A stretch of DNA of 64,000 nt, from the NCBI GenBank assembly GCA_964019425.1, contig OZ025806.1, positions 372,001 to 436,000 on the forward strand, read 5' to 3'. Below, one piece after another: positions 1,179-41,817 of this stretch (position 1 is its first letter; each line of letters opens with the position of its first letter). Both the position numbers and the translations under genes were made by a program. The notes under the pieces were generated by a model. It was not told the DNA's origin. It did no database searches and worked only from the letters and a program-made list of their open reading frames with translations. Source of the stretch: Flectonema sp. DT1601. Lineage: Eukaryota.

Positions 1179-1411
1179 TTTGGTGATCAACGAGTGGAGC
1201 GATCACTTGACAAGAAGGAAAAAGAGAAAGGACCGATTAATTGGGGCTTTGGTTGTATTCCCAAGGCATGTTTTTTTTTATTTTTTTTTATTATTCATTT
1301 ACATTATTTTTTTTTTTTTTTAAAATTAATAATCACATTTTGTTCAAAAATATTTCATATTAGAGTAAAAGAAAAAGAAAAAAAGAAATAAGAGAAAAAA
1401 AAAAAAAAAAA

Positions 1412-6950: not shown

Positions 6951-7077
6951 TAAAAGGGTGCCCCAGTACCGGATTTGAGTTTTTTGGATACTATTTTCGT
7001 GGGGTGGTGGGCTCGGATTGGGTGTTAGGTGCCCACGGGATAGCCTGGTAAAAATTGGGGGGGGGGGGGGGGGGGTA

Positions 7078-9026
7078 GGGGGGGGTACAAGCATCGATTT
7101 TACGGAGATTTTGGGCACTTTCGGTTTTTTTCCGGAGAACAAGTTTTTTGTGCACCCAAATTATGAAAACTGCAACATATACCCCAAAAATGGGGATTGC
7201 GATCCAAAGAAACAGTTCTTCGGCACTTTAGAGCAAGTCTTTGAAAAATCTCAAAAAGTGTGGACCGTGTGGTACCTGAGGGGGGTGAAAACAAGGGGTG
7301 TGTTAGGAGGGCTCACAAAAATTACAAGTAATTCCGTGCATTGAGCAATCCATAACCAGGGTTTCCCTCCGAGTTGAGTGGGGGATGAAAAGGGAACCCA
7401 GTTTTTATTTTTATCGACCTGATTTGAACCTTAATAATATGCTACACGAGACCCGGCGTGTTAATTCCCCCTTGTCCGATGTTTAGGCTACTGGCCTTCT
7501 CTTGAGCATCTCATGTGCTCAGCTTTCGAAATTCGTCCCGAAGCTGTGCTTCTTTCTGTACAAGATAGACAGAGGACCAATCCTTGGATGCAGACGGCAG
7601 ATTAGCATTAGACCTTGCTGTCTAGAGGTCTTCCCTGTGAGGACGGGGTGGTACGTTCAGCCCCTGTAGCGCCTCCTGTTGTGCTTGTTCTTGCCAATCT
7701 GAAGAGGGTCGGTGGTCCTACGTTGATGTGGTAGCCTTTGGAAGTCCGTGTGCCTCTGGAATATGTTGTACGTTATCAGTAGGGCAACATTCACGCCACT
7801 GGTTCCATCAGTTGACCAAGAACTATCAACAACACTGAATAACCTCCCCATCCCTTGAGGGGTGCAGGATGACAACGAACACAACGGTTGTTAGCTTCAT
7901 CCCACGAGCACGACAGGCACTAGAGGAAGTATCATGCTGCAGCAATGTGACGGAGGGTGAGGAGGAAGCTGCTGCTTCAAGAAGTCAGGTCACCGACAGA
8001 TCACCTGAATCCATCAACAAGTCGGACTGTCCTTCGAGATATAGTTGGTGACTTCGACCCGCTTCCCTTCTGTCTGCGCACCTGCGACAGCTTCAACTAT
8101 GTCACTCACTCAGGACTTTGTTGGATGTCTCTGCGGCGATCCCTTCTTGCCGCAATATCTGCAGTGTTGTTACGACTCCAAGACTCCAGGAGTATATCTC
8201 CCTCGTTTGGGTACAGTTGCAAGCGGGTGTGTCTTTCGTACTTCTCCTTATGCTGCATATACTAGAGTGTCTTGTATGCCCTGCTGGTGAGTATGGTTGG
8301 GTCTTAAGTGATGCCTTGAACGGCTTTTTGGATAGGGCATGTTGCCCTATGTCGCTGCTGCTTATCTATGGCACTGCTATTTGACGCACTACCACTACAG
8401 CTGTCTTCAGGATTATCCCTGTTTGGGGTACTGACGTGGCGCTTTCTCCATTCTGTGAGCCTTCTGTGATCACGATTCAGATACTGGACGTTTCTTGACC
8501 CCTTTCTCACGCGTATCTTACTTCTGACTGTCCAAGTGTTGTTGCGTGACTTCAGAGATGCCTCGGGTGGTGTTTTCATGCACTCTGGGATCAATGCTCT
8601 CCTCCGCAGAATGACTTTGTGAGCTGCCCTGCAGAACGTTGTTTTCCGCTGCGTTATCCTGCCCATGAGCCTCGTGGCCTCAAGCATGGCCGAGCGAGAG
8701 CGCTGTTCTTTTTCGTGGCGTGTTCTTGAGGCGGAAACTGATACGTAAATGGTATATTAGCAAACTGCGCATACAGGGGCACACCAAGACTCGCCTCTTC
8801 TCATTGTAAAAAAAAATTATTTGAAGGTGCATTTCACAGGCCTCAAAATTGGACCCCCAGGTACCACACGGTCCACACTTTTTGAGATTTTTCATTCCTT
8901 TGCCGAAATCAGCCAAATCGAGGTTTTTTCGGCCCCGAAATCACATTTTTGGGGGTTCTGATGGGGTCCTGGGTATTTTTTGCCCCCGGGAAGGTTATAT
9001 TTACCAAAATTCGGAAAAAGTACCCC
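7078..9026. mobile_element. Non-autonomous TIR DNA element, copy 1 (inner TIR partly deleted)
   Basis: Starts GGGGGGGGTACAAGC after TA (7076-7077) and ends ...gtacccc before TA (9027-9028). It is the reverse complement of 9029-11002. Confidence 0.8.
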
Positions 9027-9028
9027 TA

Positions 9029-11002
9029 GGGGGGGGTACAAGCTGTCGATAAAGTACTTTTTCCGAATTTTGGTAAATATAACCTTCCCGGGGGCAAAAA
9101 ATACCCAGGACCCCATCAGAACCCCCAAAAATGTGATTTCGGGGCCGAAAAAACCTCGATTTGGCTGATTTCGGCAAAGGAATGAAAAATCTCAAAAAGT
9201 GTGGACCGTGTGGTACCTGGGGGTCCAATTTTGAGGCCTGTGAAATGCACCTTCAAATAATTTTTTTTTACAATGAGAAGAGGTGAGTCTTGGTGTGTCC
9301 CTGTGCACGCAGTGTGCTAATATACCATTTCCGTATCAGTTTCCGCTTCAAGAACACGCCACGAAAAAGAGTAGCACTCTCGAGCGGCCATGCTTGAGGC
9401 CACGAGGCTCACGGGCAGGATAACGCAGCGGAAAACGACGTTCTGCAGGGCAGCTCACAAAGTCATTCTGCGGAGGAGAGCATTGATCCCGGAGTGCATG
9501 AAAACACCTCCCGAGGCATCCCTGAAGTCACTCAACAGCACTTGGACAGTCAGAAACAGGATACGCGTGAGAAAGGGGTTCAAAAAACGTCCAGTATCTG
9601 CATCGTGATCACAGAAGGCTCAGAGAATAGAGAAAGCGCCACGTCTGTACCCCAAACAGGGATAAGCCTCAAGACAGCTGTAGTGGTAGTGCCTCAAATA
9701 GTAGTGCCATAGATAAGCAGCAGCGACATAGGGCAACATGCTCCATCCAAAAAGCCGTTCAAGGTATCACTTAAGACCCAACCATGCTCACTAGCAGGGC
9801 ATACAAGACACTCCAGTACATGCAGCATACGAAGAAGTACGGAAGACACATCCGCTTGCAACTGTACCCAAACGAGGGGGATATACTCCTGGAGTCTTGG
9901 AGTCGTAACAACACTGCAGATATTGCGGCAAGAAGGGATCGGCGCAGAGACATCCAACTAAGTCCTGAGTGAGTGACATAGTTGAAGCTGTCGCAGGTGC
10001 GCAGACAGAAGGGAAGCGGGTCGAAGTCACCAATTATATCTCGAAGGACAGTCCGACTTGTTAATGGATTCACAGGTGATCTGTCGGTGACCTGACTTCT
10101 TGAAGCAGCAGCTTCCTCCTCACCCTCCGTCACATCGCTGCAGCATGATACTTCCTCTAGTGCCCGTCGTGCTCGTGGGATGAAGCTAACAACCGTTGTG
10201 TTCGTTGTCATCCTGCACCCCTCAAGGGATGGGGAGGTTATTCAGTGTTGTTGATAGTTCTTGGTCAACTGACAGAACCGGTGGCGTGAATGCTGCCCTA
10301 CTGATAATGTACAACATATTCCAGAGGCACATGGGCTTCCAAAGGCTACCACATCAACGCAGGACCACCGACCCTCTTCAGATTGGCAAGAACAAGCACA
10401 ACAGGAGGCGCTACAGGGGCTGAACGTACCACCCCGTCCTCACGGGGAAGACCTCTAGACAGCAAGGTCTAATGCAAATCTGCCATCTGCATCCAAGAAT
10501 TGGTCCTCCGTCTATCTTGTACAGAAAGAAGCACAGCTTGGGGCCAAATTTCGAAAGCTGAGCACATGGGATGTTCAAGAGAAGGCCAGTAGCCTAAGCA
10601 TCGAAGATGGGGGAATTAACAAGCCCGGTCTGGTGGAGCATATTATTAAGGTTCAAATCAGGCCGATAAAAATAAAAATTGGGTTCCCATTTCATTCCCC
10701 ACTCAACTCAGAGGGAAACCCTGGTTATGGATTGCTCAATGCACGGAATTACTTGTAATTTTTGTGAGCCCTCCTAACACACCCCTTGTTTTCACCCCCC
10801 TCAGGTACCACACGGTCCACACTTTTTGAGATTTTTCAAAGACTTGTTCTAAAGTGCCGAAGAACTGTTTCTTTGGATCGCAATCCCCATTTTTGGGGTA
10901 TATGTTGCAGTTTTCATAATTTGGGTGCCCAAAAAACTTGTTCTCCGGAAAAAAACCGAAAGTGCCCAAAATCTCCGTAAAATCGATGCTTGTACCCCCC
11001 CC
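9029..11002. mobile_element. Non-autonomous TIR DNA element, copy 2 (inverted, both TIRs intact)
   Basis: 15-bp TIR GGGGGGGGTACAAGC / GCTTGTACCCCCCCC, with TA on both sides (9027-9028, 11003-11004). A shared subterminal motif aaaaatctcaaaaagtgtggaccgtgtggtacctg lies near both ends. Confidence 0.85.
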
Positions 11003-11035
11003 TAGGGGGGGGGGGGGGTTTCTGCACATCCTCAT

Positions 11036-11116
11036 ATTCTTTTTTATTTATTTATTTTTAAAAAAGAAAACAATCAGTTTAGCGTCTTGACCAGGACGGA
11101 AAATAGAAATTAATCA
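11036..11116 (+). repeat. Partial hairpin-satellite unit truncating the retroelement RNase H
   Basis: aacaatcagtttagcgtcttgaccaggacggaaaatagaaa is identical to the B units. Confidence 0.85.
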
Positions 11117-12500
11117 CTGCTATCTCTTGCATTGTCGCGGCATGTATGTCGAGGAGTTGATGATTCAATTCAATGACCTTGAGAACTCCATAGCACAGAG
11201 CATACATTTCCTTCACGTAAATATCGTATCTCTGAGGATTCACAAAGGAACCCCAAAATTCCTCTAAAGAAGCCAACAAGACAACTCCCCAACCAGAACC
11301 ACTAGCATCGGTGGCGATTCTTATCACCTTGCGTTCTAGATCGATCACCCATGATGCCCATTCGTTTTTGAAGAGCGCAGAGAACTGCACTTCAATGTAC
11401 TTCGCGATTGGTTCAACAGATGTCAATTCAGTCCACGGACGTCCCAGGGCTGCAGTACGTGACATCCAAGTAAGAATGGGGCGCAGAAATCTCATCGGAC
11501 CGCCAAGAGCATAGAAACTCCACACCAAAATCCCACAAATCTTCCATGCGACACGAATCGGAATAGGCTTTTCCAACAATGAAGTAATTGCAATCAGCTT
11601 CTGAGTCCACTCGGAACGACAACGTATATGTTTACGTTCGAGGTCCCATTCAATCCCAAACGCAGTCAGTTTCGTACCCACAGGATCAACATCCCCAAGT
11701 ACAACTCGATACCTCTGGCAGAGTAATCTAAATTTAAGTCCAACTTCTTCAAGCTGACCCTTTTCATCAGACACAAAGACAACATTATCCATCCAAACCA
11801 GAAACCGAACAGACAGACCCGAAGTTGCAACTTCTGCGAGTTTCTCAGCAAACCTTTGACTGCGGGGTGCACTTGAATCCCATAGGCGCTCGTTTCATAC
11901 GTAACAGACGATTACCAACTTGAAATCCAAAGATGTTTCTTATCTCCGTAGGAAGTAGAAATTGAAAGTAAAACGATTTAAAATCAAACTGTGAAATCCA
12001 CTCAGAGCTCATTATCGTGTTGCGAATAGTCTGATATGAAGGCAAAGCACACTTGGGAATGACGACACCGTCCAGTGCTTTATTGACCCCTTTTGGGTTC
12101 AAAATAAAACGAAGAGCTCCAGGTTGTTTCTTTTTGACACAGAAGGCACCACTCAGAATACGGCTTTTACACGAATGTGGAATCAATTCAGCAATGTCAA
12201 GGTCAATTAAGCGTTGAACATGAGGCTCTAGTAGTTTGTTCGGAGGACCCATTGCACCTTTTTTTAAGGATGTGATGTGCCCACCAACGTCTAAAATCCA
12301 TTTAAAATTGTCTTTGCACTCTGGATAGTCGTGCAGAAATGAATCTAAATCAATATGAGTCAGAGGTGATGAAGCGATCTCACCTTCATAACAAGCCCTC
12401 CTTGCACGCGGAACGCCTGCTTCATCCAGCCATTCGGAAAAAGAGTCTGCATATCCGTAATCATCCATCGCACATTCGAGTGAAGACATCCCTCTAGGCC
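11117..12500 (-). pseudogene. Reverse transcriptase-RNase H of a tyrosine-recombinase (DIRS-order, VIPER/TATE-like) retroelement; frameshifted and 3'-truncated
   Basis: AFCVKKK..GALRFILNP, QFDFKSFYFQF, APMGF; frameshift near 11860; then RFLVWMDNVVF, FGIEWD, and RNase H IATDASGSGWGV...IYVKEMYA. Confidence 0.85.
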
Positions 12501-12512
12501 AGATATCCACGT

Positions 12513-13031
12513 TCAAATCTTCTGCAGCAGGTCTGTCGGCTGTAGGGAGTTCTTCGTGCCCTTCCTGGTCTCGTGAGGAATGTATTTGAGCGTAGACACG
12601 TCGGACTTGTGCCGAGCCAAGGTCTGAGCTGCGTCCTGTCCTATCTTTGTCGCAACAAAACCTAGTGCGGAATGTCTGACATAATGTGAGGTCGTCGCGA
12701 TACGCCTCTTCAAAAACGCGTTGTAGTTGGATAGTGTCAAACCTGGAAAGATTTGGCTGTCGCCCTGCAGTGTAGTCAGCCAACGTCTCAGAATCTGGAA
12801 AAATGGACCGGTCGTATTGATCAATAGACCCTGTCCTTGGGCCCTGATGTCCGTCTTTCCCGCTATAAGAGTGATCAACGTCTGATTCCCTTTGATTGTA
12901 CGAATGTGATGAACGCAAAGAAGTTCGAGATCCCGAAACCGACAAGCAAGCATCCACTGACACGCTAATGTAACTTTTAGCCTCACCAGGGTAGTCGAGT
13001 TGTCGAAAACCACACTTGTCGTCTCTCCCAC
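12513..13031 (-). CDS. Tyrosine recombinase catalytic domain of the same retroelement (5'-truncated)
   Basis: Complete catalytic set: R (ACRFRD), K (GKTD), HxxR (HYVR), H (ARHKS), Y (TLKY). Confidence 0.88.
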   Translation of the reverse strand: MGETTSVVFDNSTTLVRLKVTLACQWMLACRFRDLELLCVHHIRTIKGNQTLITLIAGKTDIRAQGQGLLINTTGPFFQILRRWLTTLQGDSQIFPGLTLSNYNAFLKRRIATTSHYVRHSALGFVATKIGQDAAQTLARHKSDVSTLKYIPHETRKGTKNSLQPTDLLQKI

Positions 13032-13091
13032 TCGCGTGACTCGCGAAGCAGAAATCGTCGGTACGCATCCTGCTCTGCAAATGCAGACCAG

Positions 13092-13358
13092 TTATGCGTG
13101 CTCTGCGGAAGGGTAAACCCCACCTTGAGGCATGTTCTGACCGGATGCCCTGTTGCACTCAACCAGGGACGTTATACTTGGAGACATGACAGTGTCCTCA
13201 AGAGAATTATACTCTTCTTGGAAGAGTTACTAAAAAAGTACAACCAGAGGAAGTTGTACTTACCTCCACCATCAAAGGCTTTTTTGAAACCAGGAGAAGA
13301 AAAGGCCACAGCAAGACAACCACGCGAGATGATCTGGAGATCAAATCGTCTAATGTGA
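13092..13358 (+). pseudogene. Fragment of an RLE-type non-LTR retrotransposon (zinc-knuckle region, HERO/NeSL-like)
   Basis: CVLCGRVNPTLRHVLTGCPVALNQGRYTWRHDSVL: a CCHC knuckle plus the RHD motif that precedes the restriction-like endonuclease. Confidence 0.8.
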
Positions 13359-26608: not shown

Positions 26609-29600
26609 ATGTCGTTGCCTGGTATTCAAAGCCCATCACCAATACCTGTAAAGCTCCCCTCAGCTGATGGTAAGATATCGCTCGACGTTGTTAAATATTT
26701 AATTGGTGGAAATGATATTTCACACAGAACTGATAGAAGAATAAAAACACAACACCAAAGCACTGAAGTTGAAAAGAGCGATGAAAAGGATATTATGAAA
26801 AGATTATTGAGTGAAGCTAGAGACCCAGATTCATTCGTGGCAAGCGTTCTAAAAGTCAGTCAGGTAGGAACAGAAGCTACGCCTCCGGCAATGATCCCGA
26901 GAGAGTATTGGATCTACAGTGAAAATCCTTTATCTCACGCATTTGGGTCTTCTAATACAGCTTTCTTTGATCAAAAATTGAGTATTTGGAAAAAAAAAAT
27001 TTTTCCCTCTGAAAAGCCATCATCCAGAACAGAAGTTATACTTTTAGCAAAAACACTTGATATGATGTTATCCAAAGTAGATATAAGTGTGGTGAGCGAT
27101 ACAGAAAAGTGTTACTCGGCAGAAAGTTCTGACTACAACACGACTTTTAAAAAACTGTTGGAAATATACAACGTTGGTTTTGGTGAACTCATACGTCAGG
27201 TTTACGTTCAGTGCGCTGAGAGAGGAGTAGTGTTGGATGGTATTCGAAATTTGTACGCAGATTATTCGAGTAATTGTCTTGAAATTATTGCGTTTTTAAA
27301 ATCTCAAGTTAGATCTTCGAAGTCTAAGTTAAAACAAGCAGCTGATCAAGTGACCAAGGCAACCTCAGCAGCTAAAGCAGCCAGATATGAGTCAATGTTG
27401 ATCGGGATCGAACTGAAACAACTAACTGCAAATAATGAATCTTTATTATTGAAAATAAAAAATCAATCAGCCTTGGAAAGAAGAGCATCGTTAATGAAGT
27501 CATTCTTAACAAATCAACAATCAAGAAACGCTATGCTACTTCAACTAGGAAATGATAATAGTAGGGAATTACACGGAAATTCTCTTCAGGAATGTGTTGA
27601 GGAAGATGAATCTAGCGATGGTCATTCTACGCAACCAACGAAAGGAAATGAAAGGATGAATTCTGAAAAGGAAATAAAAAAAATGAATTCAATGCATCGT
27701 AACGACGCAAGTAATCGATCTCTTAAAAAAAAAAAGTTAACATCTCAATCCACACAAACGCTAACAGATGACGTGTGGGATCAGCCGCTCTACAATTCCT
27801 TAGTCTCATTCTGTGACATGGTAAGGAAGACGGTAACTGCAACTGAAGAGGTGACTCCATTGTATTCTTGTTTAGTATTTAACAATCCTTTAGAAAGTGC
27901 TAAATGGGCTCAGAAGAAGATGAAAAAAATTATTGAGGAATACGTCTCCACAGCTGATGGACAGACGAATGAAAATACTGAGTCTGATGAGGGAGTGATT
28001 GGGTCATTTACGATAACGAAAAAAGTGCTTTCGGAGACTCTGGAAGATGTCACCGTTACCTTAAAGGAGATAGTCACTCGGTTGACATCGTTTTACTCAT
28101 CGGCACAGTTTAAAGCAAAAATTCAAGGACTACTAAGACAAGATACGAATAGAATTCAAAAAGTACTGACAGTTGAGGATCTGGTCCCCACCACTGAGAC
28201 GGGAACCGTATCTTCACTTCAACCTCCTCGTTCATCAGAAGTTTGTCCTCTCTGTGTCAGACCTCCAGAGAAAGAATTCACTACCTCACTTGTTGATTCA
28301 AAAAAAGTTCATTCAGAAGGATCCATGAAGCCTCAAAAAGAGTTAGGAAAACAAACTCCAAACCAAGCTGCTGTTGATGAGCTGTTGGAAAAACTTCGAC
28401 TGTCGGAAGAAAAATCAAAACAACTCGAGAATGACATGACTGATACATTAGCTAAAGTCGAACATGCGGAAAGAAATGCGACAGCAATGGAGAAGCAGAT
28501 GAATGCGAGTATTGAAACACTGAGAGAAACAGTATCAGATCAAAGAAGAATGTTAGACTCTCAAGCAAGTGATCTCCAACATCGAAAACTAGAGAACATC
28601 GTTAATAAAAAAGTTCAGGAAATGAAAGCTGAAAAAAAAGCTTTGCAGCAGATTCCGAGAAGTCCGACACCACCAACTACAGCACCTCCAAATCGAGTGT
28701 CCGTTGAACATGTGATTGATAAGGTTAAGCCTTCAGTGAACACGTCACCACCACCAGAACCAATTACTGAACATAAAAAACCTCCTTCTACTGTCTCACC
28801 TGATCCAGTTGTTAAAAAGCCTCGTACAAAAATTACTTCTCAACCTTCGAAAATTAGAAATAGAAAACCACAACCAACACCAACCCAAACTCCCGCTGTA
28901 AAAAAACCAAAAATCAATCAAAAAGAAATACCAAAGATCTCTGAAGCTAATCAAGATGAATTCGAAAAAGATGACATTCTGATTGAGGATGATAACCAAA
29001 GTCAAGCTAGAGATGAGGACACAGTCGATGAAGACGAACGTTCTAACTACAGTTCAGAGCCTGCTCCCTCCTCAATGGCATCTAAAGAGGCTGAGATTGA
29101 TCCTCCGCAAAAAGATATGTTTATTGACATTGGACAGGTGGTACCTAACACTGGAGTCCTCCCCCGTCGTAGAGGAACTCTCAATAGAGAAACGACTCAT
29201 CGACTGGCTAAAAAATTATCTCCTCAGGAACGCGCTGCCGAACTAGCTGTTCACAAAGAACGTCGAAGAAGAGAATTAGTCGCTGCTAAGAATGTTCAAA
29301 TGTCTCATATTCTTGAGAATGCCGGAAATACAAAACCAAAAACTCAACTTTGGCTCCTTCGTCAGGTGAACTCATTTTACAGAGCAAAGGCTATTGCGGA
29401 TATGGTATGGATTTCTATTTTAAATTCTTCCTCCTTCTGTCCGACTTCACTTTAAATGATGACAACGTTTACAAAACACTCTCGTTCTTCTGACTCATGT
29501 TTGATGAGCCATTGTAAATCATGCTTCTGCAATTCTGAGGATCTGTTTTTCTTCTTCTTCTGTCTTTGAGAATCCCACTCAGTAATTGAGTACAGTCACC

Positions 29601-32600
29601 CTTCCAGTTTCGATCTACGAGAATGATTAAAAAAGAATTTGGCATTTGGCTTGAAGGTTCTCCCTGTTGATACTAAACAATTAACTACCTTAATCTAATT
29701 TGATGATTTGTGAAAAGAGAATGAATTCCCTCCTTCCTCCTTCTGTCCGACTTCACTTTAAATGATGACAACGTTTACAAAACACTCTCGTTCTTCTGAC
29801 TCATGTTTGATGAGCCATTGTAAATCATGCTTCTGCAATTCTGAGGATCTGTTTTTCTTCTTCTTCATCTGTCTTTGAGAATCCCACTCGGTAATTGAGT
29901 ACAGTCACCCTTCCAGTTTCGATCTACGAGAATGATTAAAAAAGAATTTGGCATTTGGCTTGAAGGTTCTCCCTGTTGATACTAAACAATTAACTACCTT
30001 AATCTAATTTGATGATTTGTGAAAAGAGAATGAATTCCCTCCTTCCTCCTTCTGTCCGACTTCACTTTAAATGATGACAACGTTTACAAAACACTCTCGT
30101 TCTTCTGACTCATGTTTGATGAGCCATTGTAAATCATGCTTCTGCAATTCTGAGGATCTGTCTTTCTTCTTCTTCATCTGTCTTTGAGAATCCCACTCGG
30201 TAATTGAGTACAGTCACCATTCCAGTTTCGATCTACGAGAATGATTAAAAAAGAATTTGGCATTTGGCTTGAAGGTTCTCCCTGTTGATACTAAACAATT
30301 AACTACCTTAATCTAATTTGATGATTTGTGAAAAGAGAATGAATTCCCTCCTTCCTCCTTCTGTCCGACTTCACTTTAAATGATGACAACGTTTACAAAA
30401 CACTCTCGTTCTTCTGACTCATGTTTGATGAGCCATTGTAAATCATGCTTCTGCAATTCTGAGGATCTGTTTTCTTCTTCTTCTTCATCTGTCTTTGAGA
30501 ATCCCACTCAGTAATTGAGTACAGTCACCATTCCAGTTTCGATCTACGAGAATGATTAAAAAAGAATTTGGCATTTGGCTTGAAGGTTCTCCCTGTTGAT
30601 ACTAAACAATTAACTACCTTAATCTAATTTGATGATTTGTGAAAAGAGAATGGTTTCCCTCCTTCCTCCTTCTGTCCGACTTCACTTTAAATGATGACAA
30701 CGTTTACAAAACACTCTCGTTCTTCTGACTCATGTTTGATGAGCCATTGTAAATCATGCTTCTGCAATTCTGAGGATCTGTTTTTCTTCTTCTTCTTCTG
30801 TCTTTGAGAATCCCACTCGGTAATTGAGTACAGTCACCCTTCCAGTTTCGATCTACGAGAATGATTAAAAAAGAATTTGGCATTTGGCTTGAAGGTTCTC
30901 CCTGTTGATACTAAACAATTAACTACCTTAATCTAATTTGATGATTTGTGAAAAGAGAATGGTTTCCCTCCTTCCTCCTTCTGTCCGACTTCACTTTAAA
31001 TGATGACAACGTTTACAAAACACTCTCGTTCTTCTGACTCATGTTTGATGAGCCATTGTAAATCATGCTTCTGCAATTCTGAGGATCTGTTTTTCTTCTT
31101 CTTCATCTGTCTTTGAGAATCCCACTCAGTAATTGAGTACAGTCACCATTCCAGTTTCGATCTACGAGAATGATTAAAAAAGAATTTGGCATTTGGCTTG
31201 AAGGTTCTCCCTGTTGATACTAAACAATTAACTACCTTAATCTAATTTGATGATTTGTGAAAAGAGAATGGTTTCCCTCCTTCCTCCTTCTGTCCGACTT
31301 CACTTTAAATGATGACAACGTTTACAAAACACTCTCGTTCTTCTGACTCATGTTTGATGAGCCATTGTAAATCATGCTTCTGCAATTCTGAGGATCTGTT
31401 TTTCTTCTTCTTCTGTCTTTGAGAATCCCACTCGGTAATTGAGTACAGTCACCCTTCCAGTTTCGATCTACGAGAATGATTAAAAAAGAATTTGGCATTT
31501 GGCTTGAAGGTTCTCCCTGTTGATACTAAACAATTAACTACCTTAATCTAATTTGATGATTTGTGAAAAGAGAATGGTTTCCCTCCTTCCTCCTTCTGTC
31601 CGACTTCACTTTAAATGATGACAACGTTTACAAAACACTCTCGTTCTTCTGACTCATGTTTGATGAGCCATTGTAAATCATGCTTCTGCAATTCTGAGGA
31701 TCTGTCTTTCTTCTTCTTCATCTGTCTTTGAGAATCCCACTCGGTAATTGAGTACAGTCACCATTCCAGTTTCGATCTACGAGAATGATTAAAAAAGAAT
31801 TTGGCATTTGGCTTGAAGGTTCTCCCTGTTGATACTAAACAATTAACTACCTTAATCTAATTTGATGATTTGTGAAAAGAGAATGGATTCCCTCCTTCCT
31901 CCTTCTGTCCGACTTCACTTTAAATGATGACAACGTTTACAAAACACTCTCGTTCTTCTGACTCATGTTTGATGAGCCATTGTAAATCATGCTTCTGCAA
32001 TTCTGAGGATCTGTTTTTCTTCTTCTTCTTCTGTCTTTGAGAATCCCACCCGGTAATTGAGTACAGTCACTATTCCAGTTTTGATCTACGAGAATGATTA
32101 AAAAAGAATTTGGCATTTGGCTTGAAGGTTCTCCCTGTTGATACTAAACAATTAACTACCTTAATCTAATTTGATGATTTGTGAAAAGCGATACTGTCAG
32201 TTTCTTTTATAGGACTACAATCATAATCTAAGACAAGTAAATAACCAAAAACCCAAACCAGACAATACTGGGAAGTACTGACACCCCACTGACTGAGTTT
32301 ATAATTGACAAAATAAGACAAAAACACGGTTCGAAAAAGTTGTCGGATGCTTCAATTGGAACGCTTCTTGTTACTGTTTCTCATTACAAGTCTGATCCAA
32401 GAATTGAGTTATTTGCAAGTTTTTTAAGCGGAGTGTTCTCAACAAGGGCATTGTCGTTAGTAGTGAGGTATAATAAGATAATTGACGAAACGAGAGCTGG
32501 ACCTGAATATTCAAAAAGCCCGGCTGATGATCGAAGGTGTGTATTAAAACAATATGATAAGAGAGGTTTCCAGTTTGGGCTTTTATAAAAAAAAAAAACG

Positions 32601-32905: not shown

Positions 32906-33235
32906 TCGCTTGTGACGTTTCTGTTTTTTTTTTTACCGAACAATGAGGTAAGAAATAATAAGTTGCCACGTCTTTTTCTTTCTCTCGTGGTCTATCTTAG
33001 ATTATATAAAAATATATTTTTTTATTTTTTATTTGAAACAAATTGTTTCTAATTTTTTATACTCCATTCACTTATGTATGGATCACTTACACGTAAAGTT
33101 CCTTTTTTCTTTTTTTTTTTTAAAATTGGGAAAACCCCTAATTCCACAAAAATAGTTTGCGAAATCGCCAACTCATCACAAAAAAAAAACGTCCCACCCC
33201 GATATGAATAAAAAGAGGGAAAAAACTTTCTGTAC

Positions 33236-33251
33236 TTTCTGTACTTTATTG
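33236..33251 (+). other. Retrocopied 3' part of the euglenozoan spliced leader
   Basis: TTTCTGTACTTTATTG matches my recollection of the last 16 nt of diplonemid and Leishmania spliced leaders; a partial duplicate tttctgtac lies at 33227-33235. Confidence 0.88.
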
Positions 33252-33315
33252 ATTTCCTACCATTACCTGGTGAGAGTCGATTTTGTGCGGGTTTTCTGAC
33301 AGACATAAAACTATA

Positions 33316-34740
33316 ATGAGCAGTTGTAAGGAGCTGCTTTTGGATGTGATGCGGTTAGTACAAGAAGTGGAGAAAGGACTAGCAGGAGAAGAAAAGAGAA
33401 GGAGGGTTTTGACTCTCACGATGAGAGTGCTGGAGCAGCTGACGGAGGACTCCGGAGAGAAACAAGGAGAGTCGTCAAAGAGAAAGACGACAGAGCAAGA
33501 GAGGAAGGGGAAGGAGTCCGGGGGACAACGACAGGAAGCGGCGAGCACGGTGAGGGATGGAAATGATGGAGGCCCGACGCCAACTACCAACAACAAGAAA
33601 CCCACTCTGCCAGAGTGGTACATTCACGCAGCGTGGGCTAAAGCAACACCTACGCTTAAATTCTCAGAAGCAATCGATGCCTCCAAAAACAACGCGGACG
33701 GACTCGTGCTCATCAGCTCAAAGGCTGATTATGAAGCACTGAAGCAAACACGAACGAAGGGCGACTGGACTGCCATCTCAAAGTCTAAACTGTTTAAAAC
33801 AACAGTCCCAGTCGCACTTCCAGTCGTAAAGAAGTGCGGAACCTGCGTCATTCGTAGGGTATTTGTCACCCCGATTTGTGGCAAAGATTTCACTGCCGCA
33901 AGAGAAGACGCCATCGAGCCACCACAGCCGGACCCAGTTCTATTCGTACAAGACTGGAGTAAATCAGCAGAGAGCACTCTCACCACTAAGGTGAAAGAAT
34001 TAATTAAAAAGTGGGAGCTGAAGACATCGCCCTTCGGATTTAAAAAATGCGATATGCACACATCTATGGCGATCCGTGTGCCAAACTTCAGAATTTCTGA
34101 AATTCTGGAATACAACAACAGCGACACCTCCAGTGAGAAGAGAGATCTATTCATCAGAAACCCATCTTGGTCTAATGGCCAAGACTCTTGGAACACAGTT
34201 CAGTTCGTTAAGGACTTGGGCTTCAAAGCGGTGCTGGGCAAACTTTCAGTTCTTTCAGCAATCAAAGGTAGCTTCTACATCACGAAGTTCCGAGAGTGCT
34301 TTGGGCTGAAAGTTCAACCCGGGTTTACTCAAAAAGTGAGAGAATCACTCGGGGATTCTCTGAAACCCGCACTGCCGACTGGTCAGCGTTTTATAATTAA
34401 ATCACTGGCTATTAAGAAGTTCACGACGCAACAGATCAGCGATCACCTGTTGCACGCATACAAGTGGAGTCACACAATTGTGGCTAGTTTTCATAAGGGA
34501 GGCAACAAAACGTTAATTGCAATCTCTGAATCGGTTCCATCACCAAGCTTCGTCGACATGGGTAAAGATGCGTACCTTGTAATCAACATGGAAACTAAAA
34601 GAGAAAAGCCGGTCAAATTGGGGCCGACCTTCAACCCGGGCAAGGGTCCAGTTATATCTGGTGATCTGAAGCGACACTGTGCTGAAGAACCAACCGATAC
34701 TACTGAAACGACTGATGTGGAAATGGATAATTCAAACTGA
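33316..34740 (+). CDS. LINE ORF1 protein (474 aa), no recognised domain
   Basis: ATG 64 nt after the SL remnant; intact ORF ending in TGA at 34738-34740. Confidence 0.85.
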   Translation: MSSCKELLLDVMRLVQEVEKGLAGEEKRRRVLTLTMRVLEQLTEDSGEKQGESSKRKTTEQERKGKESGGQRQEAASTVRDGNDGGPTPTTNNKKPTLPEWYIHAAWAKATPTLKFSEAIDASKNNADGLVLISSKADYEALKQTRTKGDWTAISKSKLFKTTVPVALPVVKKCGTCVIRRVFVTPICGKDFTAAREDAIEPPQPDPVLFVQDWSKSAESTLTTKVKELIKKWELKTSPFGFKKCDMHTSMAIRVPNFRISEILEYNNSDTSSEKRDLFIRNPSWSNGQDSWNTVQFVKDLGFKAVLGKLSVLSAIKGSFYITKFRECFGLKVQPGFTQKVRESLGDSLKPALPTGQRFIIKSLAIKKFTTQQISDHLLHAYKWSHTIVASFHKGGNKTLIAISESVPSPSFVDMGKDAYLVINMETKREKPVKLGPTFNPGKGPVISGDLKRHCAEEPTDTTETTDVEMDNSN

Positions 34741-37700
34741 CTTGACAAACGAACACCGTCAACTTCAAATTCTAAAAATGACTCACATCATAGTAAAGTT
34801 CTGGTGAAGCCGACTACTGTAACAGCACCGACTATCTCTCAAACTGAAAAAGAACTGACCCGAAGTTTATTACTGCTGGCAGGCGACGTTGAACGCAACC
34901 CTGGACCTGAAAATTCGTTACTCTCAGTGTTGAGCTGGAACTGTAGATCGATAAGTCAGAAGGGGTCTTATATTCAAAGACTCCTTTCTCACTACTCGCC
35001 GGATGTACTGTGCTTACAGGAAACCTGGTCGAAGGAACACATTTCGCACCCTGGCTATTATACATATAGGAAGGACAGAAATACAAAAGGTGGTGGCATT
35101 ATAATAATGGCAAAGAGATGCTTCTCACAAGGAATCAGTGATGAAGAATTGTTTTCGAGAACAAGCGGTATCGAAGCTATGATGCTGAATGTTGGTGGTG
35201 TCAATGTTATTAACGTTTACGCTCCCCCTGGGTGTATCATTAGAGAAGATGATCTTCCGATCACAACGAAGTCTATTATTGCGGGCGACTTCAACGCACA
35301 CAACCTCGTCTGGTCTACCAGGACAACCAAATCTGGTAAAGAATTATTTAATTGGGCGGATCGCAATGACGTTCTCGTAGCAAACAGACCTGGTCAAATA
35401 ACTCGGCCCAAACACGACATTCCTGGCGGTGGTACCTCACCTGACGTTATATTCTTTAAAGGATCAATTGTATTAGAAGAATTTTCAATCATAAATGAAG
35501 ACAGTAAACATAACTCGGATCATCGACCTCTACTCGCTATCTTCGACACAATGGCTCACCTCTCTCAAGCAACAGTTGGAGCAAGGAAACGAACTGTCTG
35601 GGATTTCAAATCTACAAACTGGAGTGCTTTCAGACAGCAACTTGATAGAAGAATTGATAGGGCTAAGTTCTCGGATGATGCCACTGGTAATGTTGGATTA
35701 TTAAATAACATAATACATGAAGTAGCTGCGAGGAACGTGCGGAGGAGAATCTTATTTAAGGGCAAGCGCCGACGTAAGTGGAAGACCTCTTCACCTGAAT
35801 CTATAAAATCAAAAGGTAGTCACCTGAAAGACCAACTGAGGAAGGGGAACAACTTTAACTTCGCCTTCAAGAAGATTAAAGAACTCCAACAGGACGCTGG
35901 TAAGGACATCAGCGTATCAAATATATCTGAGAACGATTTACCTGCAGCATTTCTGGACCTCTTTGTGGCCGATGGGGATGCTGCTAAACTCGAAGCCCCT
36001 TCATTGAAGAAAGAAGACTTGGAATTGGACATCTGTTGTGACTTCACAGATACCGAGATATCAGCAGCAATTAAAAACCTGAAGCCTCGCAAAGCAGCAG
36101 GCCCTGACGGTATTCACAACGAAATGCTTAAGAACTTATCTCAGAAGGCAGTTGACTGTTTATTAAAGGTGATCAATTCTTCGTGGAGATCCTCCAATGT
36201 TCCATATCTTTGGAAACAGGGGTTAATCAAACCGATGTTCAAGTCGGGCAAACCGCGGAACGATATTAAAAGCTACAGACCAATCACACTCACTTCGGTT
36301 GTTGGCAAACTGGCTGAGAGGTTGGTGTACGACAGGCTCATGCATTGGCTTACCGAAAACTCAGCACTCAGTCCGATTCAAGCTGGCTTCAGACGGGGCA
36401 GAAATACCTGCGAACAAATCACAATTCTGGTGGACGCCATGGTAAACAACCACACGAAGGGGAGGAGGTCAGTCTTCTTGTCATTCGATTTCACAGCAGC
36501 CTTCGATAGGATTAACCATCGAATTTTACTTTCAAAACTACAAAGAATGGGCATCCCAACCTTCATCGTTCGATGGATAACGGACTTTCTAACCAATAGG
36601 AAGGTCAGAGTTGATGCAAATGGACATTTCAGTAAGTTTCGTACGCTGTCAAAAGGAGTGCCTCAAGGATCAATCTTAGGCCCACTACTCTATTTAATAT
36701 ATGTTGACGATCTGTGTAAGATTCTCTCACAAGAGAAGGAAACGACTTTGACCGCACTGTATGCAGACGACACCGCTTGTGCAGTATTTGGCTCGACCAT
36801 GGACGAAGCAATCTCAAACGCTCAACGAATACTTGACATCGTTGACAAGTGGTGCCGTGATAATGACATGGCACTTTCAGTCTCCAAGACTTGCGCTCTG
36901 AAAATGGATATTCAATCGAAAGAAGTAACCCTGACTGATACTAGCGACCGCGAACTCTTATTCTCAAAATCACTGGAAGTACGTTCGTTAGATATTGACT
37001 ATTTTGATCTAGACAGCGTGATCAACACGACGACGACAAGGCCCACTTTACTGAGTGGTGAAACGATCCTCGAAGTAGAGGGGAAACCCATCAGGACTCA
37101 ACAAGAATTAGAAGATTTACTGATGTTGAACATCCACGACGAGATGAATGTCAAAGCGAAAATTAAAATTGCCTTCCTACTGCCGATCACGGACTCAGTG
37201 AAATATCTGGGTGTTTACATTGATAACAGGCTCAGGTTTGATAAACAGTTAGAGAAAATACACGACGAACTGAAGAAAGGGATCTCCCTTCTGCAGTGCC
37301 TCCAGCCATATGAATTGGACTACAAGACCCTAAAGATGGTTAAAAACTTGTACGTGACAGCGAGGATTTCCTATGCACTGGACAGCTTTGGTTGGTTGCT
37401 CAACCAGCATAAAACGGATGCTATCGACTTCGAGATGAGAAAAATAGCGAGACTCGTAACAGGATGCAGCAGATGTACTCCGAGGGAGTTGCTCCTTTGG
37501 GAAGCCGACATCTTACCGTTTAAAAGACAAATCGAAAAGCAGACTAAAATTGCCTATTTCAGGTACAAAGCCATGACCTGGGTGCCGGACACCAACTCAC
37601 TCGCATCGCCTCGAAGCTTCTGGGGTGGCCTCATTCCCCGTTCTGAAGGTCAACTAGAAAGTGTGGGGATCGTTCAACCTGACTCTATCAAACCTTGGAT

Positions 37701-38721
37701 TGCTTCGGACAATGTTCAAATCAGCAACAGCTGCGGTTTTACAAAATCCCCTGATCCCGCAGTGGACAGGGAGAAATTCCTTACCTACAACGCGACACTT
37801 CCTCCGGTGGACATGGTGATCAACTGTGACGGTTCATACTCTTCGAATGCGTCAGGCGCGGCTCTCATTGCTAGGTCACGAGACGGAAAGAAACGTGCTC
37901 ATGCGACCAGATTAGTGCGTGCGGATTGCAGCTACAGAACTGAGCAACATGCCTTGAAAAATGCGGCAAACTACTTAAACTGGAAGGTACAGAAAGACGG
38001 GCTAACTAAGTCAGTCAGAATCTATACCGACTCAAAATCATTGTTGGACGAGTTGAAGGGTGGCAGGTGTAAACAGAGAAACACCAGATCCCTCGGCATC
38101 CTCGAGAACCTACGGAACTGCGGTATGAAAGTACATCTTCAATTCATCCCTTCTCATATGGGGATAGAAGCACACGACGAAGTTGATGAACTTGCTAAGA
38201 AATCGGCTCACAACAGATACCTCCCTCAAATCCCAATCCGAGGATCCTTCTTCTATCACAAATCCCGAGTGAGGAGGGGGATCACGAAGGACATTTGGAA
38301 CAGAATTGGTTACACTTGCTATAAAAACACCGTCAAAGGTGCCGCGATAAAATATCCTCCCGACATGAAAAGGAGCGATGAAATCAGAATTGCGAATTTT
38401 AGAACGGGGTGTCATCCACTGATGCAAAACTGGCGGAAAGCCATCAAATGTCCATTCTGCCATAGCGCTCCATCCAACCAACTCCACCTACTCGTAGGCT
38501 GTCCATCACAGAAACTCGATGCAGCCAGATATGAAATCCTTGGCTTTTCTACATTGACAGGCAAATGGGACCGATCAAGTGATCTAATCCTCATCAACGG
38601 CATTCCTGCCAGTCTTGGCTCAATCTTTGCCACCAGCTGGCTTCCTTCAGTAGCGATGTTGATCAGGTGGATGGAACAAGCATCCAACCTGAGACTTTGG
38701 AATTGTGTAGGTGACACGTAG
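34741..38721 (+). CDS. LINE ORF2: 2A-like peptide, AP endonuclease, reverse transcriptase, RNase H, C-terminal zinc finger
   Basis: LLLLAGDVERNPGP; SWNCRS, LQETW, GDFNAH, SDH; YRPITLTS, GVPQGSILGP, YADD, KYLG; CDGS, YTDS, PSHMG; CPFC...HLLVGC. The frame is open from 34741. Confidence 0.95.
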   Translation, partial: LDKRTPSTSNSKNDSHHSKVLVKPTTVTAPTISQTEKELTRSLLLLAGDVERNPGPENSLLSVLSWNCRSISQKGSYIQRLLSHYSPDVLCLQETWSKEHISHPGYYTYRKDRNTKGGGIIIMAKRCFSQGISDEELFSRTSGIEAMMLNVGGVNVINVYAPPGCIIREDDLPITTKSIIAGDFNAHNLVWSTRTTKSGKELFNWADRNDVLVANRPGQITRPKHDIPGGGTSPDVIFFKGSIVLEEFSIINEDSKHNSDHRPLLAIFDTMAHLSQATVGARKRTVWDFKSTNWSAFRQQLDRRIDRAKFSDDATGNVGLLNNIIHEVAARNVRRRILFKGKRRRKWKTSSPESIKSKGSHLKDQLRKGNNFNFAFKKIKELQQDAGKDISVSNISENDLPAAFLDLFVADGDAAKLEAPSLKKEDLELDICCDFTDTEISAAIKNLKPRKAAGPDGIHNEMLKNLSQKAVDCLLKVINSSWRSSNVPYLWKQGLIKPMFKSGKPRNDIKSYRPITLTSVVGKLAERLVYDRLMHWLTENSALSPIQAGFRRGRNTCEQITILVDAMVNNHTKGRRSVFLSFDFTAAFDRINHRILLSKLQRMGIPTFIVRWITDFLTNRKVRVDANGHFSKFRTLSKGVPQGSILGPLLYLIYVDDLCKILSQEKETTLTALYADDTACAVFGSTMDEAISNAQRILDIVDKWCRDNDMALSVSKTCALKMDIQSKEVTLTDTSDRELLFSKSLEVRSLDIDYFDLDSVINTTTTRPTLLSGETILEVEGKPIRTQQELEDLLMLNIHDEMNVKAKIKIAFLLPITDSVKYLGVYIDNRLRFDKQLEKIHDELKKGISLLQCLQPYELDYKTLKMVKNLYVTARISYALDSFGWLLNQHKTDAIDFEMRKIARLVTGCSRCTPRELLLWEADILPFKRQIEKQTKIAYFRYKAMTWVPDTNSLASPRSFWGGLIPRSEGQLESVGIVQPDSIKPWIASDNVQISNSCGFTKSPDPAVDREKFLTYNATLPPVDMVINCDGSYSSNASGAALIARSRDGKKRAHATRLVRADCSYRTEQHALKNAANYLNWKVQKDGLTKSVRIYTDSKSLLDELKGGRCKQRNTRSLGILENLRNCGMKVHLQFIPSHMGIEAHDEVDELAKKSAHNRYLPQIPIRGSFFYHKSRVRRGITKDIWNRIGYTCYKNTVKGAAIKYPPDMKRSDEIRIANFRTGCHPLMQNWRKAIKCPFCHSAPSNQLHLLVGCPSQKLDAARYEILGFSTLTGKWDRSSDLILINGIPASLGSIFATSWLPSVAMLIRWMEQASNLRLWNCVGDT

Positions 38722-39217
38722 TCGCCATTTAAGTGTTTTATCAATATTTAGTATTTTCATCATTATCAATCATCTCCTGGTTGGGTAACTGCACATCACC
38801 TTCGGTGTTGTCGCAGTGTCTCTTCCAACACTCCTGTCTCCTTTTTCTCCTATTCTCCTTATAAATTTCTCTTGAGGGCAGGCCTTCGGGCTGTTCAAGT
38901 GGTCTTTGACCACCGCTCTAGTTATATGCTCGATTCTTTGTTTTTCCTTATCGATGGTAGGAATGGTAACCGAATTAGCTTCGTGTGTCCAATTTCAAGG
39001 ACGCGTGACCATTTATTTTTTCCCGTTGCCGCTCTTCTTACGTCCTCAGGCGGAGCCTACCTATGTTTCCCGTGTTTTCCAATTTGTCAGACTTAAACCA
39101 AAAGAAAGTATAAAAGAAAGACAAAACAAAGAAGTGAAAAGAACAAAAACAAAGAGTCTGGAAGCACAGACGAGTGTAACCAAAAAAAAAAAAAAAAAAA
39201 AAACTTTTTTTTACAGC

Positions 39218-39300
39218 GACCCGTTAGTCGAGAGGTAGTACCTCCACCTTATATCCCAGAGGTACCCGGCTCGAATCCCGATACGACCTTTTTTTTTTTT
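39218..39300 (+). promoter_or_regulatory. Degenerate tRNA-like Pol III cassette (A box, B box, T-run) inside the MULE
   Basis: TAGTCGAGAGG (39225-39235), GGCTCGAATCC (39268-39278), T12 at 39289-39300; cloverleaf stems are poor. Confidence 0.5.
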
Positions 39301-39450: not shown

Positions 39451-41412
39451 TCAGTCAGAATCTGTCGTTGAAGTTGAGTAAGACTCTGTCGTTGAAGTTG
39501 AGTAAGATGAGTAGGATGACTGTGCACTTAAAGATTGTGAGTCCGAATCAGAGGATTCACATCGCTTTCGCTTCTTCTTGACTGTCTTTGCTGCTGGCTT
39601 TGCTGCTACTTTCTTTGCTGCTGGCTTTGCTGCTGGCTTTGCTGCTGGCTTTGCTGCTGGCTTTGCTGCTGCTTTCTTCGCTGCTGGCTTTGCTGCTGGC
39701 TTTGATGATTGCGAGGTTGGTTTCCGACAACTTCGTTTGTTGTGACCTTTAGCGTCGCAGTTGGAGCACGTCAGGGTCCTTGATTCACCGTTGGAGCGAA
39801 TCCGAACCTTTCTTCTTCTCCCGACACCCTTCTGCACAACAGGGGGTTTCGTGCCGTCGAATTGAAGCTGTCCGGTAGGTATCGCCTGTGGGTACACAGA
39901 GACGCGGTAGAGCTCTCTGTAGCTGCTCATTCTGGTGTAGGGAGGCAAAGAGGTTTCGTGAGTAAAGACATTATTGCGCTGATGTGTCAATACTCTGACT
40001 GTGTGGATGCAAGGTAGGTTGTGGCGGAGGAAATCAGGACAGCCACACACTAATGTTCCATCTTTCAGACACACCAACCACCCGTGTTCTCGTCGTACTT
40101 CCCATTGTCCTTCACCCAGTGGTGTGACAGCATGGTTGTTTGCTGAGGTGGCACTCCCCCGAACGAACAACTCCACTGTCGGAACCGGATAGTTCGCAGG
40201 AACGTCAGCATGCATCTCGCGTCGGCTGGCGTAGGTGTCCGTTGTCCAACAACGGGTGTCCTTTATCACAGATAAAAGACTCCCTTGCCGAGTCTCCTTG
40301 AACACGGCGTTGACGCATTCCGACGCGTTGGAGGTGTAGGTGTTGCATCTGGGGACACCCGAAGGCCAGTAAGCGTCTGACCACCTTTCAAGGTTTGACT
40401 TAAGCAGATAACGATGGGCACGTTTTCCGTACTTGTCCTTTATCCCTTGAAGGCACGTCTCGGCCTCTGTTTCGATGCTTAGCTTGCTAATCTTCCACAC
40501 TAACAACGTCGCATCAACCTTCGGTATCTTCGTCTGGCTGGCCACGTTGCCAACCAAGTGCTGCACGCACAAAGCATGGTGCAACACGACTCCGTGCAGG
40601 GAGGTGTCGGACTCCAGCCCCTTCTGCCTGTCGGAAATCAAGACGAACCTTTTCAGTCGGTCGCCAAAATGGTTCTTCAGGTGGGTGTGGTGGTATGCCC
40701 ATCCCTCGTGGTTTTCGACCACTCCAACCGAGTAGGCTAAAGGCATAACATGCCTTTCGGCGTCGATCCCCACGGTGATGAACAAGCACCCACCAAACGG
40801 ACCCGTCAGACTGCATGCATCGCTGCAGATGACAGGTGCCAGGTGCTCAGCTGTTTCTGGCCTCACAAAAGACCAAAACACCCTCTCAAAAGCACCATCA
40901 TCTCTCTTCTCGATGTTCCAGTACATCTGGCTGTTGCGCTGTTGGAGATCGGTGAGGTACGGTGCTATCAGGCCGTACTGCTCGCCCATCAACCCGTGGA
41001 CCTTCTCCTTGGCCTTCTCCAGACCCCTCTCCACAGTCTTTTTGGGGACCGCAACGTCGCGGAATGACTTTAAGTCAATTGCCGCTTGTTTCGGCCCGTA
41101 GTCAAACTGACTGGCTACCTTCTCTTCCAAAATACTGGAAATCCAGTCCGACGTGCCATCGCAGCCCCGCCTCGCTTCCCCAGGTGCGCAAGTGTGACTC
41201 TCCACCTTCGTCACGCGGCACTCCCCCTCCACCACCTTTGCCTTCACCGTCCATTGGCATTCGTCGTTTGGACAGGCGAGGGTGAGGTACGTGGGGCACC
41301 TTCTCTGCACCCTGCAGCTGTGTCCTAGCACAGTGTTCACCCGAAACACAGTCTGGATCAGTTCTTCCTGTGTGCGGAAGTAGTCTCCAACAGCATAAGT
41401 AGTAGCAGGCAT
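39451..41412 (-). CDS. MULE (MuDR-like) transposase with SWIM finger, CCHC knuckle and KPAA-repeat tail
   Basis: ICSDAC, ISDRQKGL, CVQH, TSNASE; CGC..F...LPCIH; CSNCDAKGHNKRSC; intact 653 aa. Confidence 0.95.
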   Translation of the reverse strand: MPATTYAVGDYFRTQEELIQTVFRVNTVLGHSCRVQRRCPTYLTLACPNDECQWTVKAKVVEGECRVTKVESHTCAPGEARRGCDGTSDWISSILEEKVASQFDYGPKQAAIDLKSFRDVAVPKKTVERGLEKAKEKVHGLMGEQYGLIAPYLTDLQQRNSQMYWNIEKRDDGAFERVFWSFVRPETAEHLAPVICSDACSLTGPFGGCLFITVGIDAERHVMPLAYSVGVVENHEGWAYHHTHLKNHFGDRLKRFVLISDRQKGLESDTSLHGVVLHHALCVQHLVGNVASQTKIPKVDATLLVWKISKLSIETEAETCLQGIKDKYGKRAHRYLLKSNLERWSDAYWPSGVPRCNTYTSNASECVNAVFKETRQGSLLSVIKDTRCWTTDTYASRREMHADVPANYPVPTVELFVRGSATSANNHAVTPLGEGQWEVRREHGWLVCLKDGTLVCGCPDFLRHNLPCIHTVRVLTHQRNNVFTHETSLPPYTRMSSYRELYRVSVYPQAIPTGQLQFDGTKPPVVQKGVGRRRKVRIRSNGESRTLTCSNCDAKGHNKRSCRKPTSQSSKPAAKPAAKKAAAKPAAKPAAKPAAKPAAKKVAAKPAAKTVKKKRKRCESSDSDSQSLSAQSSYSSYSTSTTESYSTSTTDSD

Positions 41413-41817
41413 CTTTTAATTTTTTTTTGTGGAAAGCTGCAACAAAAAAACTTTGTAATAAAAATTAAGAATTTTTTTTTTTTTTAAAATCTGTCAAGTT
41501 CGAGTCCCGGTGCGGTAACTTTTTTCCCTAATATTTCGGCCGATGGTCAATTTTTCGGGTCAAGTTCGAGTCCTGGTGGATAACTTTTTTTTGTAGGGAG
41601 TTGGCGATTTCGCAAACTATTTTTGTTGAATTAGAGGTTTTCCCTTTAAAATTTAAAATATATTTATTTCCTTCGTTCTTCGGTCAGTCTGAGGTATACT
41701 TTGTGGATGTTTTTTTTTTTTTTTTTTTTTTTTTTTTGAAACTTAATTCACCTTAAATCTTCACACAGTTTGATTCTAACGAATGGTAACTTTTCAATAA
41801 AAAAACGACAAATAAAA

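Follow-up and report, generated by a model that had tools for sequence, protein, structure and literature searches.

How the second open reading frame (ORF2) of long interspersed nuclear elements (LINEs) is translated is treated as an open question (PMC3894237), and the question is raised again by a single copy of an intact LINE at ~33230–39203 (+) in a 64,000-nucleotide stretch of Flectonema sp. DT1601 (contig OZ025806.1, positions 372,001–436,000; hereafter the window). Here ORF2 follows ORF1 in the same frame across one TGA, and the first in-frame ATG lies within the endonuclease domain. Two recoding signals known singly, a stop codon in a readthrough-type context and a 2A peptide, are combined anew in this element. 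They likely act in succession: we give somewhat better than an even chance to the proposal that the ORF2 protein (ORF2p) arises when ribosomes occasionally read through UGA-CUU and then, as predicted, undergo StopGo at the 2A. The features that bear on the question are listed by their positions in the window.

33316..34740 (+): ORF1, 474 aa by translation; ATG at 33316, TGA at 34738–34740
34735..34743 (+): stop context AAC-TGA-CTT, a type II-like UGACUU hexamer; stop position constant in the family
34741..34905 (+): in-frame, Met-free leader of 55 codons by translation, with the 2A peptide ELTRSLLLLAGDVERNPG at its end
34778..34807 (+): mini-ORF in the +1 frame, nine codons from its ATG; its TGA overlaps the in-frame GTG (GUGA)
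34885..34908 (+): 2A core DVERNPG/P, with Leu at –13 to –10 and at –17
34906..38721 (+): predicted mature ORF2p, 1271 aa from PENSLL, with APE, RT, RNase H and a C-terminal CCHC-type finger

The junction reads TCA AAC TGA CTT GAC, and the same frame stays open from 34741 to 38721 (1326 codons). Fifty-five open codons (34741–34905) lead from the stop to the G/P skip site, whose Pro codon occupies 34906–34908, with the endonuclease directly behind. The first in-frame ATG after the ORF1 stop (35107) lies inside APE, past the SWN and QET motifs. Within the leader are an in-frame CTG (34801) and GTG (34804), the latter with a purine at +4, and an out-of-frame ATG in strong context (34778) lies between them and the ORF1 stop. 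The NPGP motif occurs once across the six frames of the window. The shared frame with its single TGA in AAC-TGA-CTT, the open stretch to the skip site and the position of the first ATG had all been described in the initial annotation; translation bore them out, and the coordinates were correct wherever checked.

The enzymes behind the junction are intact. ORF2 matched Exo_endo_phos (E 1.9e-12), RVT_1 (E 4.4e-36) and RNase_H (E 6.7e-08, at 37801–38250) in Pfam, the CCHC-type finger was recognised from sequence reading, and the best solved structural relative of ORF2p is L1 ORF2p. The element is therefore an intact APE-type non-LTR retrotransposon with RNase H. It is young and recently active, the youth of the family following from the 0–13 residues by which the long members compared differ.

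Under the proposed mechanism, most ribosomes would terminate at the UGA to give the 474-aa ORF1 protein (ORF1p), and a few would insert an amino acid there and continue through the leader. At NPG/P, these few would release an extended ORF1p (530 aa, C-terminus ...VERNPG) and go on to make ORF2p as a free protein (1271 aa, N-terminus PENSLL). The ORF1p:ORF2p ratio would depend on how leaky the stop is, in a gag-pol-like manner, and the 2A would take the job of the retroviral protease, an enzyme that LINEs are without.

Conservation of the stop was assessed in the family clusters, which comprise 37 ORF2 and 18 ORF1 proteins from many contigs, with 15 members of each listed. ORF1 terminates in DVEMDNSN or DVEMDSN in 15/15 listed members (of 18; 22 contig occurrences), which makes a private nonsense mutation unlikely, and this explanation was rejected. 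The initial annotation had pointed to a sense codon at the stop in other copies as evidence that would count against its proposal; all 15 listed ORF1 copies end there. Six of the listed ORF2 members (15 of 37 listed) include the leader, and in all of them the called protein begins in the GTG region, never farther upstream; in copy P0133, the called start is one codon later. No ORF1–ORF2 fusion of ~1800 aa was found with an ORF2 query (729–2321 aa; best 120 of 162) or with an ORF1 profile (1018–2905 aa), both weak negatives, since a fused protein may lie among the members not listed. A second, decayed copy (P0216) gives IIQTDL in the +1 frame and must therefore have TGA followed by C or T; it shows that stop-free joins of ORF1 to ORF2 in decayed copies can arise from linker indels.

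The sequence TGA CTT fits the type II readthrough motif (UGA then CUD or CGV). UGACUU is given for Caaingua virus and UGACUD as the alphavirus readthrough consensus, and downstream structure is described as only conditionally required at UGACUA-type sites (PMC13517186). By composition, TGA-C would be expected at ~7% of stops and TGA-CTD/CGV at 2.2–2.7%. When the leader was shuffled 20,000 times, 4% of the shuffles were stop-free over 55 codons, 13% over 35 codons and 24% over the 21 codons to the GTG. Taken singly, none of the junction features is beyond chance; the joint chance of frame (1/3), open leader and context is ~0.002–0.005, calculated post hoc. TGA terminates two of five apparently complete host ORFs (C at +4 in 0/5), and reassignment of TGA in the host was rejected because host ORFs terminate at it.

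The 2A core is canonical (GDVERNPGP) and is preceded by LLLL at –13 to –10, with five Leu within –19 to –10. Leu at –13 to –10 was tied to skipping and to reduced output in a screen of 3,271 peptides, and most of the retrotransposon 2As tested decreased protein abundance (preprint 10.64898/2026.06.17.732966). The motif is present in all five diplonemid families whose called proteins extend that far, once as NSGP in a decayed copy. Judged from its sequence, the 2A is likely, though not certain, to be active in StopGo, several LINE 2As having proved inactive despite a sound core (PMC3708506).

As a control, non-diplonemid metagenome contigs were scanned for a 2A motif ahead of a W-N motif, yielding 109 stretches, of which 79 had the motif in one frame, 59 were distinct, 53 were APE-like and 47 had a visible upstream stop. 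The leaders of these 47 have a median length of 101 codons and contain Met in 39 cases. TGA-C occurs in 1/47, and an in-frame ORF of at least 150 codons precedes the stop in 1/47 (L078); none matched ORF1. The layout of the Flectonema element is unusual among 2A LINEs, since control leaders seldom share its features, though many of the control loci are decayed or too short to reveal an ORF1.

Two observations from the control set stand apart. The L078 locus (with L124, from a contig differing at 2 of 624 nt) is an APE element from a metagenome in which a zinc-finger-like in-frame ORF of 239 codons is followed by TGA-A, a Met-free leader of 22 codons and a 2A before APE; the Flectonema layout may recur here, or the two contigs may represent a single locus that acquired a nonsense codon. 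In 11 of the 47 distinct control leaders (L031–L139), from animal-type LINEs, the upstream in-frame stop is followed directly by ATG (TAG ATG or TAA ATG).

Among the matches listed, ORF2 has its nearest named relatives in transcripts of Flectonema neradi (48% and 42%). Named relatives of ORF1 come from F. neradi and Diplonema papillatum, that is, from diplonemids only, and the host is thus probably a diplonemid. The D. papillatum genome paper, in the text available, leaves its elements uncharacterised (PMC10161547). At least two further ORF2 families exist, one at 67% with 101 members and one at 43% with 42 members; most listed members of these two big sister families are called from within APE, and the protein records of relatives cannot reveal frame or codon. 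In a quick RT tree that included no named ingi or L1Tc sequence and no Paramecium RT, the RT of the window's LINE and those of the further families fall into one group of five diplonemid-type rows (support 100), placed only weakly (81, 87) beside elements that carry a 2A and RNase H.

In six families ORF1 is a protein of its own. Four of the six end in Asn (P0166, P0184, P0207 and P0181) and three of these four have Met 2–5 residues from the end, in tails that are otherwise unalignable and in which Asn makes up 9 of 270 residues (3%). The terminal Asn may reflect some constraint acting on the codon that precedes the stop. That an entire clade of diplonemid LINEs uses Asn-UGA readthrough and then StopGo, obtaining a gag-pol-like ratio and free ORF2p with neither initiation nor protease, is a tentative extension to which we give less than an even chance.

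Searches of other collections returned no DNA of diplonemid relatives. One search of viral contigs gave 0 loci and another gave 6, each an exonuclease III-like gene standing alone and lacking a 2A; ORF1 had 0 matches in metagenome contigs outside the window; and prokaryote genome contigs gave 4 loci, 2 of them resembling stray 2A LINE pieces. Thirty loci from the viral collection were excluded from the analysis.

Several results weigh against readthrough followed by StopGo. The junction DNA represents one copy only, so that the frame and the +4 C are those of this copy; other intact copies and sister families are represented by protein records. If GTG 34804 is the start, only the 21 codons before it need be open by chance, as in 24% of shuffles. 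Folding gave no stimulatory stem-loop behind the stop (z +1.27, with every window at z –1.6 or above). Nor was the best leader–3′ untranslated region (UTR) duplex significant, 4 of 60 shuffles equalling it and the block ranking fifth of 33; this pairing, of 34811–34835 with 38790–38829 (–27 kcal/mol), was striking against 8 shuffles but not against 60, and was rejected. The Candida Tca2 gag-UGA-pol junction alone gave no readthrough in yeast (PMC2194720), and many canonical-looking LINE 2As are inactive (PMC3708506). The terminal Asn residues were counted after the fact, in families that are related to one another.

Relatives add to this side of the balance. Two F. neradi proteins (P0004 and P0150) have Met 23–34 residues before the skip site, a Flectonema relative (P0003) has Met at the start of APE, and in a sister subfamily (P0135) the called protein begins 22 residues ahead of the skip site; a start-codon route therefore exists in the clade. 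A decayed sister-family copy (P0188) is continuous from ORF1 into 2A-APE without a stop, and the composition of its linker favours an off-frame over an in-frame reading by 8–9.5 bits, a layout that, if it is the family's own, would put that family's ORF2 out of frame. Three alignments of P0188 can be drawn, one in frame (score 23), which sets Arg opposite the stop, and two off frame, +1 and –1 (p 0.62–0.94 overall); the best local in-frame score of this copy is no better than that of shuffles (p 0.62). With three readings, none statistically backed, it was dropped as proof of an out-of-frame ORF2 in the sister family. Of the two-step recoding put forward in the initial annotation, the constant stop and the canonical 2A hold, and it stays the most likely route; no stimulatory structure was found, and a CTG/GTG start stays as a rival.

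That rival, which we consider doubtful yet worth taking seriously, is an AUG-independent termination–reinitiation similar to that of human L1, in which ORF1 would be finished, a few ribosomes would restart at CTG 34801 or GTG 34804, and the 2A would trim the N-terminus. The choice of start codon would be immaterial, because the 2A trims whatever N-terminus arose. The adjacent in-frame CTG-GTG with its purine at GTG +4 suits such a restart, as does the GUGA stop–start overlap, and the restart may be relayed by the nine-codon +1-frame ORF whose UGA overlaps the GUG. Translation of human L1 ORF2 is AUG-independent and requires the upstream ORF (PMC4091050), and the diverse starts ahead of the 2A in relatives, the start one codon later in P0133 and the missing readthrough-type structure point the same way. 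Reinitiation nevertheless leaves the shared frame, the open first 21 codons and UGACUU unexplained (~0.002–0.005 chance), unless frame and openness were inherited from a fused ancestor. The ORF1 stop itself has no stop–start overlap of the UAAUG type, TGA being followed by CTT, and the out-of-frame ATG 34778 stands in the scanning path, where it would be expected to intercept scanning subunits and spare elongating ribosomes.

An improbable variant retains readthrough but makes the 2A weak or inactive, so that ORF2p would act as a 1801-aa ORF1–ORF2 fusion, or the 2A would chiefly reduce ORF2p output. Its precedents are the LINE 2As that are inactive despite a conserved core (PMC3708506) and the loss of protein abundance caused by most tested retrotransposon 2As (preprint 10.64898/2026.06.17.732966). 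Here, by contrast, the core is perfect and Leu occupies –13 to –10, a pattern of the skipping and reduction classes, and the motif is retained in five diplonemid families.

Production of ORF2 from a different RNA is quite improbable: a separate, shorter mRNA made by leader trans-splicing or from an internal promoter and used with a non-AUG start, or a spliced mRNA that lacks the stop. Trans-splicing is general in diplonemids. The Tca2 junction, for its part, contains a minor promoter (PMC2194720). In 34600–34905, however, there are 4 YAG sites, 0 of them with a pyrimidine tract (8–11 of 20 nt), and a donor-like hexamer is absent downstream of 34336; splicing out of the stop was rejected since donor and acceptor signals were not found near the junction. 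A shorter mRNA would still be without an in-frame AUG ahead of APE.

It is highly improbable that the element naturally encodes one ORF1-2A-ORF2 polyprotein, interrupted by a nonsense mutation in copies that are mobilised in trans, or that the UGA specifies selenocysteine: a pseudoscorpion protein does carry a 2A between ORF1p and ORF2p (preprint 10.64898/2026.06.17.732966) and the in-frame alignment of P0188 puts Arg opposite the stop, but the stop is found in 15/15 listed ORF1 copies, six families have separate ORF1 proteins, the fusion searches were (weakly) negative, both ORFs are intact, and Rfam gave no match above chance, to a selenocysteine insertion sequence (SECIS) or otherwise, leaving selenocysteine without support from that source.

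Readthrough followed by StopGo has its closest precedents in systems that each show one half of it. In Paramecium tetraurelia Group 3 LINEs, readthrough of the ORF1 stop was proposed from consensus sequences (Guerin et al. 2017, PMC5405496), and ORF1 and the APE-RT ORF2 likewise share a frame that a stop codon interrupts. In contrast to the Flectonema element, the available text on Group 3 mentions neither 2A nor RNase H, so that the readthrough product would be a fusion, and the clade and genetic code are those of ciliates. The 2A LINEs of the L1Tc/ingi, CR1, L2, Crack and Rex1 groups share a GD(V/I)ExNPGP immediately ahead of APE, with the motif 40–80 aa from the ORF2 start (Odon 2013, PMC3708506; Luke 2013, PMC3894237). 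Most of these are without ORF1, as are all ingi-clade elements, and CR1-26_BF, CR1-53_BF and CR1-1_LG are reported to carry ORF1 as well (PMC3708506, PMC3894237). The Flectonema element shares the 2A directly before APE with the Ingi/L1Tc clade but not the single-ORF layout, given the 474-aa ORF1 in family copies. Its leader is AUG-free and lies in frame behind that ORF1, unlike the known 2A LINEs, for which the consulted sources describe no in-frame stop or readthrough. Retrotransposon proteins of Cordylochernes scorpioides also have a 2A between ORF1 and ORF2 domains (preprint 10.64898/2026.06.17.732966), but as one annotated protein, with no intervening stop mentioned in the available text.

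The UGA-CUU hexamer itself is shared with the type II readthrough sites (UGACUD/UGACGV) of alphavirus nsP3/nsP4 (PMC13517186), and both these viruses and Candida Tca2, with its gag-UGA-pol, place a stop between an abundant product and the polymerase (PMC13517186, PMC2194720). Unlike in the viral and Tca2 cases, a downstream stem-loop was not found here, and release would be via 2A rather than a protease. Human L1 and silkworm SART1 likewise use a bicistronic LINE RNA (PMC4091050, PMC5972666). Human L1 ORF2 can be produced without its AUG, and the 63-nt L1 spacer equals the stop-to-GTG distance in the present LINE; L1 has an AUG and two in-frame spacer stops (PMC5860796), and SART1 a UAAUG overlap, none of which is present here.

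A LINE with ORF1, leaky stop, leader, 2A and ORF2 in this order did not turn up in the literature searched, which excluded most subscription papers and Repbase notes, nor in the available text of PMC5009743, PMC5972666, PMC12338488 and PMC12846837. The initial annotation's suggestion that two-step recoding is new to LINEs therefore needs narrowing: readthrough had been proposed (PMC5405496) and ORF1 together with 2A was known (PMC3894237), and it is their combination that was not found in these sources. If readthrough and StopGo both operate, they would provide a third, initiation-free answer to the translation of LINE ORF2, in which the leaky stop keeps ORF2p low, the 2A replaces the protease and the enzyme is freed from the ribosome reading its own RNA. 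They would also give a reason for some LINEs to retain ORF1 plus 2A, previously seen as a transitional stage to ORF1 loss. If reinitiation operates instead, the 2A would be a device that renders the start codon irrelevant, of lesser but real interest.

The remaining parts of the element are as follows.

33220..33229 (+): candidate left target-site duplication AAAAAACTTT, a 10-mer repeated at 39198–39207; low complexity, weak
33230..33315 (+): short 5′ region assigned from sequence; 5′ end not fixed
38722..39203 (+): 3′ UTR and poly(A) tail; the A-run ends at 39203

The 5′ region contains a pyrimidine run and CAG ending at 33302, 13 nt upstream of the ORF1 ATG; acceptor-like in sequence, it is a possible spliced-leader site. 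An Rfam scan for a 5′ ribozyme, including HDV-like Pr77, gave no match, the 5′ end of the element not being fixed. ORF1 had no match in a Pfam search. Its structural model (pLDDT 61) has an N-terminal helical hairpin followed by three predicted beta-alpha-beta (RRM-like) domains and a low-complexity tail whose last residue is Asn. The top structural matches of the model are RRM domains (Z 6.9, root-mean-square deviation 4.3, 79 aligned), below the Z of 8 at which a match stands out. The 3′ UTR gives a more stable fold than its shuffled versions (z –2.35).

The window contains further repeats and element-like ORFs. Directly behind the poly(A), a tRNA-like piece of ~75 nt (39214–39290) lies between T-runs; ARAGORN and Rfam made no call, and it is possibly a short interspersed nuclear element. 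Adjoining the 3′ end of the LINE is a MULE transposase ORF with a SWIM finger and a PAAK repeat (39451–41415, –). A tandem array at 29427–32191 consists of about nine 309-bp units, 98% alike. At 7076–11004 and 11079–13158 (–), a 3.9-kb inverted repeat (95%) adjoins a pair of overlapping ORFs that match RT and RT-RNase H weakly, possibly a tyrosine-recombinase-type retroelement. Two long overlapping ORFs at 1369–2396 (+) are probably a retroelement remnant; one of them carries the RNase H1 N-terminal (Cauli_VI) domain.

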